This document shows positions 1 through 5,578 of a stretch of DNA of 5,578 nucleotides, piece after piece. The stretch's first letter is position 1, and each line of letters opens with the position of its first letter. The stretch lies in the NCBI RefSeq assembly GCF_003334335.1, contig NZ_QOWQ01000076.1, one strand, 5' to 3'. The notes beneath the pieces are model-generated. The model was not told the origin of the DNA, searched no databases, and was given only the letters and a program-made list of their open reading frames with translations. Origin of the DNA: Escherichia coli (lineage in GTDB: Bacteria > Pseudomonadota > Gammaproteobacteria > Enterobacterales > Enterobacteriaceae). Both the position numbers and the translations under genes were made by a program.

Positions 1-82
1 CTTTATTATCGAGTTCGGTGACCGCCTGGACGGCCACTTCTGAGAAAAGGTATTTACACAGAATCCTGAACAGGCTCCCGTA

Positions 83-118
83 AAGCGGCAACTTTATTGA
101 GTTGCCGCTTTTTTATTC
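83..118 (+). terminator. Rho-independent terminator-like hairpin in the intergenic region downstream of ycaK
   Basis: Inverted repeat AAGCGGCAACT (83-93) / AGTTGCCGCTT (100-110) with 6-nt loop TTATTG, followed on the + strand by a run of seven T then ATT (109-118). On the - strand the stem is followed by only TTTA, so it looks mainly like a terminator for a + strand gene entering from the left (pflA expected by synteny), possibly shared with ycaK. Confidence 0.6.
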
Positions 119-153
119 CGCGCTTCATTCTGCTACAGCGTTTTTAACACATC

Positions 154-744
154 TTATAGTGCATCTACCATATCCCGTACCTGAGATAATAACGACTGAT
201 AATAGCTCGCGTGAAGTTCTTCCCCATCGAATACCACTGTATTACACAAGAAAGTGACATCGGCATCTTCAATACCAAGATAACTGCACATATTTTTTAA
301 ATAATCGCTTATATTTTTTTCCCAGCCCATCTGGACAAATGATTCTTTGTCTCCTCCAACCAGCGCCACCCAACGAACTTTATTGAATGGTAATTTGTGC
401 CCATCTCCATAAGCCAGCCCATTATTCCATACTCTGTCAATATATCCTTTTAGCATTGCCGGGAAGCTGTACCACCAGAGAGGAAAAACCACCACTAACG
501 TGTCATGTTCAAGCAGCTCTGAATAAAGCTGATGAACCTCTGGAGAATAACGTTTATCCATATTCTTCCAGTCTGGTTCATCTTCCGGCGTCATCACTGG
601 GTTGAAATTACGCCGATATAAATCGAGTTCCGTCACCTGTATTTTCCGCTCCATTGCCCGCTGATGGATCGCATCAGCAATATGTGCGGTCAATGAATCA
701 TGACGAGGATGGGCCCATACCAAATAAATACGTTCAGACTGCAT
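154..744 (-). CDS. ycaK: Flavodoxin-fold NAD(P)H dehydrogenase (quinone)-like oxidoreductase, 196 aa
   Basis: ORF of 196 codons, ATG at 744-742, TAA at 156-154. GGAGG Shine-Dalgarno (complement of 752-756) sits 8 nt upstream of the ATG. N-terminal RIYLVWAHPRHDS resembles the AHP motif of the KefF/KefG/MdaB flavodoxin-like quinone reductase family. Length and sequence agree with my recollection of E. coli YcaK; neighbours match the expected order. Confidence 0.88.
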   Translation of the reverse strand: MQSERIYLVWAHPRHDSLTAHIADAIHQRAMERKIQVTELDLYRRNFNPVMTPEDEPDWKNMDKRYSPEVHQLYSELLEHDTLVVVFPLWWYSFPAMLKGYIDRVWNNGLAYGDGHKLPFNKVRWVALVGGDKESFVQMGWEKNISDYLKNMCSYLGIEDADVTFLCNTVVFDGEELHASYYQSLLSQVRDMVDAL

Positions 745-843
745 AATTTTACCTCCACGTTAAGTTCTGGAGCGCACTTTACGCAGGCGGCATAATCCTG
801 TAAACGTGATGATTCAGGATGAGTTAATGAAGGATTTTCACTA
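745..843. promoter_or_regulatory. Divergent ycaK/ycaN promoter region with candidate LysR-type operator dyad
   Basis: 99-bp spacer between divergent start codons. Candidate ycaK promoter on - strand: -35 TTTACA (complement of 799-804), 17-bp spacer, -10 TAAAGT (complement of 776-781). Candidate ycaN -10 CATAAT at 791-796 on + strand, and AAGGA RBS at 830-834 nine nt before ATG 844. Dyad ATCCTG (795-800) N14 CAGGAT (815-820) overlaps the ycaK -35. All hexamers were found by eye and are not experimentally supported. Confidence 0.35.
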
Positions 844-1752
844 ATGCGGATGAATATGTCTGACTTTGCCACTTTCTTTGCCGTGGCCCGTAATCAAAGC
901 TTTCGTGCAGCGGGCGATGAGTTAGGCTTATCCTCGTCCGCCATTAGCCATAGTATTAAAACACTGGAACAACGTCTTAAAATTCGCTTATTCAATCGGA
1001 CAACCCGAAGCGTATCGTTAACGGAAGCGGGTTCTAATCTCTATGAACGATTGCGCCCAGCTTTCGACGAAATTCAGATCATGTTAGATGAGATGAATGA
1101 TTTTCGTCTGACACCGACAGGAACGCTCAAAATCAATGCCGCCCGGGTAGCTGCACGTATATTTTAAATGTCTTTACTGGTTGGTTTCACACGTGAATAT
1201 CCTGATATTAAAGTCGAGCTCACAACTGACGACTCTCTTGTCGATATCGTCCAACAGGGCTTTGACGCTGGCGTTCGACTTAGTTGCATCGTCGAAAAAG
1301 ATATGATCAGCGTGGCGATCGGCCCGCCAGTGAAATTATGTGTAGCAGCAACGCCAGAGTACTTTGCAAGATATGGCAAACCCCGCCATCCTCATGATCT
1401 GCTTAATCATCAATGTGTTGTTTTTCGTTATCCCAGCGGCAAACCTTTCCACTGGCAATTTGCAAAGGAGCTGGAAATTGCTGTCGCAGGAAATATCATT
1501 CTGGATGATGTTGATGCTGAACTGGAGGCCGTTTTGATGGGTGCTGGTATCGGGTATCTGCTCTATGAACAGATCAAGGAGTACCTTGATACTGGTCGTT
1601 TAGAATGTGTACTGGAAGACTGGAGCACAGAGCGTCCAGGCTTCCAGATCTATTATCCAAACCGCCAGTATATGTCCTGCGGCTTGCGCGCATTTCTCGA
1701 TTATGTAAAAACGGGTCAGATCTGCCAGAGTCAGCGTCACCGACCACAATAA
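844..1752 (+). pseudogene. ycaN: LysR-family transcriptional regulator interrupted by in-frame TAA at 1165-1167 (N-terminal HTH fragment 844-1167, effector-domain fragment 1168-1752)
   Basis: One reading frame from ATG 844 to TAA 1750-1752 spans 303 codons; codon 108 is TAA (1165-1167) and is followed immediately by ATG 1168 in the same frame. The 107-aa fragment carries a typical LysR winged-helix HTH (FRAAGDELGLSSSAISHSIKTLEQRLKIRLFNRTTR). The 194-aa fragment begins in the LysR linker/substrate-binding region (LLVGFTREYPDIKVEL). 107+1+194 = 302 codons, the size I recall for intact E. coli YcaN, so this is a point nonsense change rather than a frameshift. Confidence 0.75.
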
Positions 1753-3183
1753 TTATTTACTATTCGCTTTACGCGCCAGCAGCGGGAATATCAGTCCTAA
1801 TCCTACCAGCACAAACGGCGTTGCAACATTCAGCGCCAACTGGAAGGTCCACTCTGCAGTGAAGGCTTCCATTTTCGGGAAGATCCCCGTCAAACAGGCA
1901 AAGGCGGTAAAGGCAAAACACCAAATCCCGACGGTCATTGCCAGAGGCTTATTACGAATAAAGACATATTCTGGTTTATATTTCTGCGCCAAGCGAACGA
2001 CTGCAATAAATGCAACAAATACCCATAAATAACGCAGCGGCATCACTACCGAATTAAGGTTCAACAGCCATTTATAGAGATTGTTCATATCACCAATGCC
2101 GAGAGTCGGCAGCATAATCAGAATCGCCACCAGTACCAGGGTCAGAAAATAGCCATTAACGGGCGTACCAGAAGCGTTGGTACGACATAAACTGGCTGGA
2201 ATATATTTGCTGTCAGCATCACCTAATAGCACTTTAAGCGGGGCATCAATCGAGAATACCAGCGCCGCTACTTGTCCCAGGGTATTCGCAATGGCGTAAA
2301 TCACCATTAAAGTATTACCCATGTTGTAATACTCGCCCAGCTTCTGAAAGGCGTAATACTGACCGTTGGTCATTAAGTCATCCGGGATATTACGCGAATC
2401 AAACATCATCCCCATCGCCAGCGAGCCCAGAATGGCACAAACCGCAACCATCACCGCCAGGCATAACATCCCTTTTGGAAATTCTTTTCCTGGGTTGCGC
2501 GTTTGATTAACGTAAGGAGAAATCTTCTCTGCTCCGCCAACCGCGAAAACCAGCATTGAAATAGTGGTAATGTAGGTAAAGTCGATATGAGGAATGAACG
2601 TTTCCCAGGTAATGTTTGTGGTCGCAATATGCACTTCAGTAATTGCAGGCGCGGTTACCGCCATCGCCACATACAGGAGCGACATAACAAACATAGCAAT
2701 CCCTGCCACAGAACCGACGATTTTCAGCGATTTCATACCGCGTGAAGCAACCCACATAAAGAAGATAAACAGCACCAGCGTTAACCCCTGTAACGCTACG
2801 ACTGAATATTCTTTGATTAGCGAACCGTCGCCTTTCATCGCCCAACCGAGCGCAATCAGAATTGCCTGGGGTTTTTGTGCCAGATAGGGAATATGCACCA
2901 CCCAGTAGGTCCACGCGGCGAGATAAGCCAGTCCGGGTCCCATCGTGTGTTTAATCCAGGTACTGACCCCGCCCTTCCCATCTTTGAAGGTCGAGCCTAA
3001 CTGACCAACAATTAGCGCATAAGGTGTGAAATAGAGTGCAAAGATAAACACCCATGAAAAAACAACCACCAGCCCCTGGTTGGCATAGTTATTAACAACG
3101 TTGCCAAAACCCCAGACAGTGATAAAAGACATCAGCGCAATGTTGTACCATCGCAACTGTTTTTCCTGAACATTCCCAGCCAT
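1753..3183 (-). CDS. ycaM: Putative APC-superfamily permease (amino acid/organocation transporter-like), 476 aa
   Basis: The long - strand ORF ends with TAA at 1755-1753. The biological start is taken as ATG 3183-3181 (MAGNVQEKQLRWYNIAL...), which has AAGGA 9 nt upstream and gives 476 aa, the length I recall for YcaM. The protein is highly hydrophobic with multiple predicted TM segments. The ORF-track start at 3375 is a GTG inside the ycaD terminator stem and is rejected. Confidence 0.85.
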   Translation of the reverse strand: MAGNVQEKQLRWYNIALMSFITVWGFGNVVNNYANQGLVVVFSWVFIFALYFTPYALIVGQLGSTFKDGKGGVSTWIKHTMGPGLAYLAAWTYWVVHIPYLAQKPQAILIALGWAMKGDGSLIKEYSVVALQGLTLVLFIFFMWVASRGMKSLKIVGSVAGIAMFVMSLLYVAMAVTAPAITEVHIATTNITWETFIPHIDFTYITTISMLVFAVGGAEKISPYVNQTRNPGKEFPKGMLCLAVMVAVCAILGSLAMGMMFDSRNIPDDLMTNGQYYAFQKLGEYYNMGNTLMVIYAIANTLGQVAALVFSIDAPLKVLLGDADSKYIPASLCRTNASGTPVNGYFLTLVLVAILIMLPTLGIGDMNNLYKWLLNLNSVVMPLRYLWVFVAFIAVVRLAQKYKPEYVFIRNKPLAMTVGIWCFAFTAFACLTGIFPKMEAFTAEWTFQLALNVATPFVLVGLGLIFPLLARKANSK

Positions 3184-3267
3184 AGACAAATCCTTCGCCA
3201 AAATTAAAGGGGCATCTGTAAAACGAGGGATTATGCGCGGCAAATAAGAAGTGCGGAAATAGCGAAA

Positions 3268-3305
3268 TGCAAAATTATAACCTGCTGCACATTTTATTTT
3301 TAAAC
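3268..3305 (-). promoter_or_regulatory. Candidate sigma70 promoter for ycaM
   Basis: Perfect TATAAT on the - strand (complement of 3274-3279) about 90 nt upstream of ycaM ATG, with an AT-rich upstream region (3291-3305) but no good -35 hexamer. Located downstream of the ycaD terminator, so ycaM is probably transcribed independently. Confidence 0.3.
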
Positions 3306-3340
3306 GAATAAAATTTGGAATAAAGCAAGTCAGATAGAAG

Positions 3341-3384
3341 AAACAAAAAAGCAGAGTGTGAAACAGTAAGTTCACACTCTGCTT
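3341..3384 (-). terminator. Rho-independent terminator of ycaD
   Basis: Perfect 14-bp inverted repeat AAGCAGAGTGTGAA (3349-3362) / TTCACACTCTGCTT (3371-3384) with 8-nt loop. On the - strand the stem is followed by TTTTTTGTTT (complement of 3341-3350). It starts 9 nt after the ycaD stop codon (3393-3395). Confidence 0.8.
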
Positions 3385-3392
3385 GAATTCAT

Positions 3393-4541
3393 TTACACGT
3401 GAGCAACGGGTTTCGGCGTATGACCGGCGTTGCGCAGCAGCATCAGCAAATAGATAAACGATACGCTGGCGATCATGATAAACAATAAATTATCGGAGAA
3501 ATTCTGCATTAGCATAGCGGTAAATGACGGGCCAAGCAGACTTCCCACAGTATAGCTCAACAGTAAGGCCTGGTTCATCGCCACCAGTTGATGATGTTCA
3601 ACTTTCTCGCAAGCCCATGCCATCGCCACCGGATATAGCGTAAAGCCAGCGGCACCGAGGATGAATAACGCTGGGGCCATCGCCGCCTGGCTAAGCATCG
3701 CGATACTGCCGAGAATGACGACAAAGACCTGAACACGCAACACCAGCAGTCGACCAAACTTATCCGCCAGACGTCCAATCGGCCATTGTCCAAGGATACC
3801 CGCACTGACCAGTACCGCCATCCAGAAACCAATGCTGGCATTGCTCACCCCTTTGTGATTGAGGTACAGCGGCATCAGGCCATATAGAGATCCCAGAACG
3901 ATTCCTGAGATAATGCAGCCATTCACGCCAAGCCGCGCCTGACGGAGTTTTAGCATTGACGTAATTGACGTCGAATCATGGTTTTCAGCCTGCTGATTCA
4001 GCACACGCGTAAACAACAGCGGTAAGATCCCTGCCAACGTCAAACCTGTAACCCACGGCAATACGGACATCAGCTCGGTTGAAACTTTGCTGACCAGTAA
4101 CTGGCCTAAAAACGTTCCCACGTAATAAACCATCATATACGCAGCAAGCAAACGCCCACGGTTACGTGACGTCCCACTGCACATCAGCGCGCTCTCAACA
4201 ACCACCCAAATCATGGCACAGCCGACGCCCGCGACAAAACGCCAAGCCAACCAGCTCCAGAATCCAATCATCAGGCCAAGGCCGGCACAGCCAGCGGCAA
4301 AAATGAAGGAGGCCAGATAATAGCTGCGGTTAAAGCCAATGCGCTTAATGACATACCCTGTCAGCAATGTACCGACAAGGTTGCCGGTAAAATAGGATGA
4401 GCTGACAACGCCTACCTGCCATGTGGACATGTGTTCCTGGGCGAGCCAAAGCGGCACGAGTGTATTTAACACCGCAATCGCCAGAGTCAACAAAAGCAGG
4501 CCAGACAGCAAAAGCATGACAGGCTGGGTATACGTGGACAT
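3393..4541 (-). CDS. ycaD: Major facilitator superfamily transporter, 382 aa
   Basis: ORF of 382 codons, ATG 4541-4539, TAA 3395-3393. Contains the MFS signature motif A between predicted TM2 and TM3 ([13 protein letters not shown]) and about 12 hydrophobic segments. Length and sequence match my recollection of E. coli YcaD. The Shine-Dalgarno is weak: no GGAGG-like element in the 15 nt before the ATG. Confidence 0.9.
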
Positions 4542-4854
4542 GAATTAAAACCGTGAGGAAGTTCAAATTTCATGCGCATCATGCCACCGCCAAAAACATT
4601 GTCAATGGGTGAAAATACGCGATATCCCAGCGGCGGTATTATCGATTAATATTACTCATTCATAACGCTAATGCTGAAGAGATGATTAGTCTCATCTGAT
4701 TGTTTTTATTGAACTAACACAAATTTCATACGCTTCGTTCAGTCGAAAAATTTCATGGTCACAGCAAACTCATATTTCCCGTCTATGCTTTCAGAGCAAT
4801 GCATCGCGTCTGATCGATTTCAGACGTACCACTGACTCTCGAAAGGAGAAGAGG
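4542..4854. promoter_or_regulatory. 313-bp divergent ycaD/ycaC control region
   Basis: AT-rich non-coding spacer between divergent start codons. TTGTCAA at 4599-4605 gives a perfect -35 TTGACA on the - strand (complement of 4600-4605) for ycaD, with a weak -10 CATGAT 16 nt downstream. AAATTTCAT occurs three times (4565-4573, 4721-4729, 4748-4756). Strong AGGAG RBS 5-9 nt before ycaC ATG 4855. No convincing ycaC -10/-35 pair was found by eye. Confidence 0.35.
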
Positions 4855-5481
4855 ATGACCAAACCGTATGTTCGTCTTGATAAAAATGATGCTGCCGTTT
4901 TGCTTGTTGATCACCAGGCTGGTTTACTTTCCCTTGTACGGGATATCGAACCCGATAAGTTTAAAAATAACGTGCTGGCGCTGGGTGACCTGGCTAAGTA
5001 TTTCAACTTACCAACTATTCTTACCACCAGTTTTGAAACCGGTCCTAACGGCCCATTAGTTCCAGAACTGAAAGCACAATTCCCCGATACACCTTACATT
5101 GCTCGCCCGGGAAATATTAACGCCTGGGATAACGAAGATTTTGTAAAAGCTGTCAAAGCGACAGGTAAAAAACAGTTAATTATTGCCGGTGTGGTAACCG
5201 AAGTTTGCGTGGCATTCCCGGCGCTTTCAGCCATTGAAGAAGGGTTTGACGTCTTTGTCGTGACTGACGCGTCAGGGACCTTTAATGAAATTACCCGGCA
5301 TTCGGCATGGGATCGCTTGTCGCAAGCTGGTGCGCAATTGATGACATGGTTCGGCGTGGCGTGCGAGCTGCATCGCGACTGGCGTAATGATATTGAAGGA
5401 CTGGCGACGTTGTTCTCTAACCACATTCCTGATTATCGTAATTTGATGACCAGTTATGACACGTTAACGAAGCAGAAATAA
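4855..5481 (+). CDS. ycaC: Isochorismatase-family (cysteine hydrolase) protein, 208 aa
   Basis: ORF of 208 codons with AGGAG Shine-Dalgarno, ATG 4855, TAA 5479-5481. Carries the isochorismatase-family signature: LLVDHQ with the catalytic Asp at residue 19, and a Cys in VVTEVCVAFPA consistent with the catalytic Cys of the Asp-Lys-Cys triad. Length and sequence match my recollection of E. coli YcaC. Confidence 0.9.
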   Translation: MTKPYVRLDKNDAAVLLVDHQAGLLSLVRDIEPDKFKNNVLALGDLAKYFNLPTILTTSFETGPNGPLVPELKAQFPDTPYIARPGNINAWDNEDFVKAVKATGKKQLIIAGVVTEVCVAFPALSAIEEGFDVFVVTDASGTFNEITRHSAWDRLSQAGAQLMTWFGVACELHRDWRNDIEGLATLFSNHIPDYRNLMTSYDTLTKQK

Positions 5482-5515
5482 AAGAGAACCGGGGCCGAAA
5501 CCCATAAGCGCTAAC

Positions 5516-5578
5516 TTAAGGGTTGAACCATCTGAAGAATGCGACGCCTCGGTGCCTCGTTAAGACGATGCCTCGCGT
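5516..5578 (-). CDS. Possible 3' end of a convergent gene, truncated by the window edge (dmsC expected by synteny)
   Basis: The last 60 nt are GC-rich and open on the - strand up to the window edge in two frames: one ends ...TRGIVLTRHRGVAFFRWFNP with stop at 5518-5516, the other ends with stop at 5513-5511. I cannot tell from sequence which frame, if either, is real, and I could not match it to a remembered protein C-terminus. Confidence 0.25.
   Translation of the reverse strand, partial: TRGIVLTRHRGVAFFRWFNP

Follow-up and report, generated by a model that had tools for sequence, protein, structure and literature searches.

The TTGTCAA heptamer between ycaD and ycaC of Escherichia coli and the conserved, previously mapped extended -10 sigma-70 promoter of ycaD

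The ycaD and ycaC genes of Escherichia coli are divergently oriented, and the region that separates them raises the question of whether a short heptamer, TTGTCAA, provides a -35 element for one of the two genes, for both of them, or for neither. The original prediction described it as a pair of overlapping divergent -35-like hexamers, reading TTGTCA on the plus strand and the perfect consensus TTGACA on the minus strand, and proposed that it probably marks the ycaD promoter. Both readings are indeed present in the sequence: the heptamer, which is the plus-strand image of the ycaD -35 hexamer plus one base, occurs only once, on the plus strand at 4599-4605, in the window (i.e., the whole stretch of DNA analyzed, 5,578 nucleotides in length), and over positions 77-5503 four mismatches separate this window from E. 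coli K-12 MG1655. The coordinates of the features discussed below are reported in Table 1.

Table 1. Genes and promoter features of the window (positions refer to the whole window; promoter positions are counted from the transcription start of the gene concerned)
Feature	Position	Strand	Remarks
ycaK	154-744	minus	
ycaN	844-1752	plus	
ycaM	ORF up to 3375; annotated start ~3183	minus	
ycaD CDS	3393-4541	minus	MFS transporter, 382 aa; expressed from the promoter
ycaD-ycaC divergent intergenic region	4542-4854		313 bp; contains the TTGTCAA heptamer
ycaD 5' UTR remainder	4542..4570	minus	30-nt leader in total, including the start
ycaD transcription start G	4571	minus	U00096.2 position 945064
Discriminator GCGCAT	4572..4577	minus	-6..-1; G+C-rich GCGC adjoins the -10
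-10 hexamer CATGAT	4583..4578	minus	-12..-7; 4/6 match to TATAAT; A-11 and T-7 kept
Extended -10 TG	4586..4585	minus	-15/-14; separated from the -10 hexamer by one base
Spacer ATGTTTTTGGCGGTGG	4584..4599	minus	16 nt; includes the extended -10 TG
-35 hexamer TTGACA	4605..4600	minus	6/6 consensus; -34..-29 from the mapped start
Conserved upstream block G[A/G]ATnA[A/G]-W-rich-AATCG	4643..4661	minus	-72..-90; mean identity 0.73
ycaC promoter	4784..4796	plus	-10 TATGCT at 4784-4789, C at -13 (TCTATGCTT), without -35; sigma-S type
ycaC transcription start	4796	plus	U00096.2 944839; 59-nt leader
ycaC	4855-5481	plus	

Read on the minus strand, the region runs ...CACCCA TTGACA ATGTTTTTGGCGG TG G CATGAT GCGCAT G AAATTTGAACTTCCTCACGGTTTTAATTC ATG. 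The distances given in the original prediction, which placed a plausible -10 CATGAT 16 nt downstream of the hexamer and about 40 nt before the ATG, are correct, 36 nt separating the end of CATGAT from the ycaD initiation codon. The sequence elements and the start expected of a sigma-70 promoter are found together, that is, a TTGACA -35, a spacer falling within 17 +/- 1 bp, a -10 with A at its second and T at its sixth position, and a start lying 5-9 nt downstream, and the TG dinucleotide adds the signature of an extended -10. A consensus scan of the window returned 12 promoter-like matches, the best of which is the ycaD promoter (10/12 plus TG). A sigma-54 reading of TGGCAT (4586..4581) was also considered and rejected, the GC lying 6 or 8 nt past the GG whereas the GG-N10-GC arrangement (-24/-12) needs 10; no sigma-54 binding at the ycaD start is listed in Cho 2014 (PMC3923258).

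Both the heptamer (1 found versus 1.17 expected) and TTGACA (3 found versus 3.77 expected) occur in the window at the frequency expected by chance. The composite is uncommon: when the 313-bp intergenic region was shuffled 5000 times with its dinucleotides preserved, a match of at least 10/12 on the ycaD strand appeared in 307 shuffles (6%), falling to 36 (0.7%) when the TG was also required. The idea of a chance motif devoid of function, which might draw on the first two figures, has nonetheless a practically negligible probability and is already refuted by the mapped start and by the near-invariance of the promoter over 80 species. The reality of the ycaD promoter rests on this conservation and on the published start-site data, and not on motif statistics.

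As for the start site, Kim 2012 (PMC3415461), using a modified 5'-RACE-seq on triphosphorylated RNA, placed the ycaD start at NC_000913.2 945064 (+), supported by 78 reads and giving a 5' UTR of 30 nt. The upstream 51-mer given there, CGCGTATTTTCACCCATTGACAATGTTTTTGGCGGTGGCATGATGCGCATG, is identical to positions 4621..4571 of the window (minus strand), so that the ycaD start corresponds to the G at 4571, 7 nt past CATGAT. The same position was recovered with 94 reads in Cho 2014 (PMC3923258), which extends Kim 2012 and covers exponential, stationary, and glutamine conditions, and again by Cappable-seq (Ettwiller 2016, PMC4782308), carried out in a separate laboratory and with a separate chemistry (945064 (+), score 66.7). 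The neighbouring Cappable-seq starts, 945089 and 945141, have scores of 4.2 and 3.4, respectively, the main ycaD start being about 15 times stronger; the minor start at 945089 corresponds to position 4546 (minus strand) of the window, 5 nt before the ycaD ATG. The 7-nt distance between CATGAT and the start is what a promoter with TTGACA for its -35 should show, and the hexamer does mark the ycaD promoter, as had been proposed; a start lying elsewhere, for example much further upstream, would have spoken against that proposal, and the published maps that we checked place it at 4571. The start-site evidence is all high-throughput and all from K-12, and a literature search on this promoter yielded no primer extension, in vitro transcription or hexamer mutagenesis. 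A separate observation concerns the gene downstream: Cho 2014 (PMC3923258) lists five starts assigned to ycaM (U00096.2 945849, 945931, 946005, 946093, and 946161) that fall in the 3' part of the ycaD coding sequence (window ~3474-3786, minus strand), and ycaM would accordingly have internal promoters within ycaD.

The conservation of the promoter was analyzed in a one-genome-per-species scan in which ycaD was found in 218 stretches; the best 80 loci (L003-L082), ranging from Escherichia through Buttiauxella, Franconibacter and Cedecea, were kept, and the counts out of 81 given here include the window. TTGAC is present in all 81 sequences, the sixth base being A in 51 and T in 30, and the 16-nt length of the spacer and the TG at -15/-14 are likewise invariant (81/81). 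CATGAT is kept in 77 sequences and the GCGC that follows the -10 in 80, and the base equivalent to the ycaD start is a purine in 80. The mean identity to the window is 0.94 for the -35 hexamer and 0.93 for TG, -10 and discriminator taken together, which makes the promoter core about as conserved as the first ycaD codons (0.88), and it drops to 0.34 over the -36..-70 stretch. On this comparison, the architecture TTGAC[A/T]-16 nt-TGnCATGAT-GCGC is almost invariant across the 80 Enterobacteriaceae species and the window. Within E. coli itself, at least 5103 of the 5426 complete genomes carry exactly the same 45-bp promoter core. This conservation does not depend on the gene lying upstream. Indeed, among the loci analyzed ycaC is carried only by Escherichia, some Citrobacter, Salmonella arizonae and diarizonae, Intestinirhabdus, and Entomohabitans, being absent from 63 of the 81 sequences; in most genera the co-directional dmsC lies about 280 nt upstream of ycaD, and the promoter is kept with either neighbour, divergent ycaC or co-directional dmsC.

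It might be argued that the extended -10 (TGnCATGAT) is sufficient on its own and that TTGAC is conserved as part of a regulator binding site rather than as a contact for sigma region 4. Extended -10 promoters tolerate the loss of the -35 and can work without it, and the contribution of the hexamer itself is therefore inferred from its conservation; moreover, the TG is invariant, the Escherichia hexamer is embedded in an 11-bp palindrome, CATTGACAATG, and negative effects of both Nac and YcaN on ycaD have been reported, without a binding site mapped at the ycaD promoter. On the other hand, the palindrome is missing in 30 of the 81 species (TTGACTTTG), and for this lack of conservation it was discarded as a binding site, while TTGAC and its exact 16-nt spacing do not change, a behaviour which fits a spacing-dependent contact with RNA polymerase; in addition, no ATA-N9-TAT Nac-type site is found at the ycaD promoter. 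We thus regard the sufficiency of the extended -10 alone as quite unlikely, and the minus-strand TTGACA as very probably serving as the -35 of the one major sigma-70 promoter from which ycaD is transcribed.

A further question concerns the plus strand, where TTGTCA, matching the consensus in five of six positions, might act as a bidirectional -35 and drive a transcript also toward ycaC. The rrnB P1 promoter uses TTGTCA, and TTGACAA/TTGTCAA is present in all 18 ycaC-bearing sequences. However, the hexamers that follow it at spacers of 16, 17, and 18 nt are GATATC, ATATCC, and TATCCC, none of which combines A at the second with T at the sixth position and all of which are devoid of the final T, and the consensus scan gave no plus-strand promoter match at TTGTCA; that no good -10 follows on this strand had been correctly anticipated, as had the distance of 250 bp between the heptamer and ycaC. 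In addition, Cho 2014 (PMC3923258) lists no start between 944839 and 945064, and ycaC has its own start, preceded by its own -10 and followed by its own leader. Nor does the comparative analysis support a shared element: the ycaC-lacking sequences split into 32 with TTGACAA, 30 with TTGACTT and one with TTGACAT, so that the plus-strand TTGTCA is not conserved (30 species read AAGTCAA at this site on the plus strand), and the persistence of TTGACAA in 32 species without ycaC implies that its association with ycaC follows phylogeny and not function. A bidirectional -35 is thus highly improbable and largely refuted; TTGTCA on the plus strand simply results from the TTG-N-CAA symmetry and goes unused. 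The description as overlapping divergent hexamers, although right in that both readings exist, was overstated, since function and conservation are confined to the hexamer on the minus strand.

Indeed, the two genes are served by back-to-back promoters whose starts lie 225 bp apart, without overlap, and the ycaC promoter makes no use of the TTGTCA hexamer; an overlapping divergent promoter pair would have an opposite-strand start served by the same or by overlapping -35 and -10 elements, and no such start is listed. The ycaC start is supported by 89 reads in Kim 2012 (PMC3415461) and by 3923 in Cho 2014 (PMC3923258), and its promoter is conserved in the ycaC-bearing genera. The two promoters share the intergenic region and the datasets in which they were mapped, and differ in that the ycaC one is without a -35, has TCTATGCTT with C at -13, and is strongly RpoS-dependent: in Cho 2014 (PMC3923258), deletion of rpoS lowers the ycaC signal (log2) to about 6.3, from about 9.1 in the wild type, which matches a promoter of the sigma-S type.

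This proximity bears on the possibility that the ycaD promoter itself is recognized by sigma-S (RpoS) instead of sigma-70. Both sigma-70 and sigma-38 binding were assigned to the ycaD start by ChIP-chip in Cho 2014 (PMC3923258), at a resolution that cannot separate the ycaC promoter 225 bp off, and the ycaD start is detected in stationary phase. Nevertheless, the ycaD promoter has a G at -13, where C is typical of sigma-S, and a consensus -35, and the level of ycaD mRNA stays the same when rpoS is deleted (7.1/7.2/7.0, versus 7.5/7.3/7.2 in the wild type, on the arrays of Cho 2014, PMC3923258), i.e., its expression is independent of RpoS. Sigma-S recognition of the ycaD promoter is therefore very unlikely, and the sigma-38 signal is most simply due to the adjacent, strongly RpoS-dependent ycaC promoter.

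From what is established on sigma-70, region 4 of the factor would contact TTGACA, region 3 the TG at -15/-14 and region 2 CATGAT, on the other side of the 16-bp spacer; the holoenzyme would then melt the DNA through the GCGC-rich discriminator and initiate at the G, giving an mRNA whose leader has no Shine-Dalgarno sequence. Compared with canonical extended -10 (TGn) sigma-70 promoters possessing a -35, that of ycaD shares TTGACA, the TG at -15/-14, A-11 and T-7, and a start 7 nt past the -10; its 16-nt spacer differs from the optimum of 17 nt, and its -10 (CATGAT) begins with C and has G at -9, but nothing departs from the class. At promoters of the rrn P1 type, open complexes are short-lived and ppGpp/DksA acts as an inhibitor. 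With those of the rrnB P1 type (sensitive to growth rate and to ppGpp/DksA), the ycaD promoter shares the near-consensus -35, the sub-optimal 16-bp spacer (in all sequences) and the G+C-rich GCGC discriminator (80/81), and it differs from them in its non-consensus -10, in having no evident UP element or Fis sites, and in its modest expression. The short spacer and the G+C-rich discriminator might thus permit kinetic tuning or stringent control, although this resemblance is only a lead. The number of reads assigned to ycaD (78-94 in Kim 2012 and Cho 2014, against 3923 for ycaC in Cho 2014, PMC3923258) is modest despite the consensus -35, which suggests that the -10 is weak, that open complexes do not last long or that the promoter is repressed.

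With regard to regulators, tables derived from EcoCyc/RegulonDB list Nac against ycaD, Nac and FNR as repressors of ycaC, and phosphorylated BaeR as its activator, and a ycaN deletion strain has been reported in which ycaD is up and ycaC down. A search for the Nac-type pattern ATA-N9-TAT gave a sole intergenic match, ATATTTCCCGTCTAT, at 4772-4786 (plus strand), which overlaps the ycaC -10 and would be consistent with the reported Nac repression of ycaC. Other features of the ycaC side are worth reporting. At 4700-4722 (plus strand), the sequence TTGTTTTTATTGA[A/T]CTAA[C/A]ACAA is conserved in the ycaC-bearing genera, its centre lying at about -80.5 from the ycaC start; its Citrobacter version, TTGAT-CTAA-AACAA, is close to the FNR consensus TTGAT-N4-ATCAA, FNR being listed among the ycaC regulators. 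In the ycaC 5' UTR, a hairpin CGTCTGA-TCGATT-TCAGACG (4807-4826, plus strand) shows a compensatory change, CGCCTGA...TCAGGCG, in Escherichia sp. E1V33 (L007). Lastly, CAAATTTCAT(G/A) occurs in three plus-strand copies (4564-4580, 4720-4736, and 4747-4763), one of which spans the ycaD start and another of which occupies about -49..-33 relative to the start of ycaC. Copies one and three are conserved in the ycaC-bearing genera and the middle one is conserved in E. coli only; the ycaD-proximal copy drifts to CGAAATCTGAAC in the genera without ycaC. The triple repeat, considered as a shared operator, is probably not a site of one regulon.

On the ycaD side, the spacing between the upstream block and the -35 is constant over 80 species, irrespective of the gene found upstream, and the block may be a regulator site; a comparison by eye with the consensus sequences of CRP, FNR, Fur, ArgR, Cra, Fis, IHF, marbox, and RcsB gave no convincing match. 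Downstream of the start, CCTCACGG (4558..4551, +14..+21) is exact in 69 of the 81 sequences, the other 12 having one of four single-base variants. The leader (window 4542-4571, minus strand) also carries a conserved anti-Shine-Dalgarno-like CUUCCUCACGG at +11..+21, and in 74 of the 81 sequences its best 5-mer match to a Shine-Dalgarno sequence does not exceed 3/5. Folding of the leader with the early coding sequence gave no significant structure (z = 0.13) and no riboswitch-like or attenuator structure, and an Rfam scan of the whole window matched no family. The -90..-72 block, the leader CCTCACGG and the GCGC discriminator are three conserved features that go beyond a standard promoter. We can tentatively speculate, without considering it the likelier outcome, that the invariant 14-nt GTGGCATGATGCGC, the fixed-distance block and the leader CCTCACGG, kept over 80 species, form an undescribed regulatory module for an orphan MFS transporter; such a module could combine a conserved regulator site upstream with kinetic control of the stringent type and with a signal in the leader.

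Some features of the window set it apart from K-12. Its two ends (1-76 and 5504-5578) differ from the K-12 flanks: the former is the end of an IS1414 element (IS256 family) inserted 4 nt past the pflA stop, and the latter the end of an IS186/IS421 element lying between ycaC and dmsC. The right-hand junction is common to strains ML35, PF9285, EC31, and B-1109, and the left-hand one was absent from all 5426 complete genomes searched. Insertions may also affect the intergenic region itself, since two E. coli strains (NZ_CP144926.1 and NZ_CP025903.1) harbor an IS1A within or beside it. In ycaN, a T to A change at 1166 converts the TTA of K-12 and ML35 (Leu108; 1165-1167, plus strand) into TAA, a nonsense codon by which the 302-aa LysR regulator is broken into two ORFs, one of 107 aa and the other of 194 aa; given the effects reported for the ycaN deletion, the expression of both ycaD and ycaC may be altered in this strain. 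Finally, position 4648 (plus strand), corresponding to -77 of the ycaD promoter and lying within the conserved upstream block, is A in the window and T in K-12 and ML35; the column varies between species, and the best identity of at most 99.8% obtained in a 601-nt search of complete E. coli genomes indicates that this A is apparently present in none of them.

Taken as a promoter, then, the element found here is an ordinary extended -10 sigma-70 promoter, already mapped, and there is nothing new in it: the ycaD start and its upstream sequence have been public in genome-wide maps since 2012, and the hexamers are of the textbook kind. Its core is nevertheless a highly conserved landmark of the Enterobacteriaceae, and the existence of separate, back-to-back promoters is relevant to the use of the ycaC-ycaD intergenic region as a neutral integration site. 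The conserved features that flank this core may hint at an undescribed regulation of the orphan transporter YcaD, and these motifs could help to assign a regulator, and hence a function, to this uncharacterised protein.
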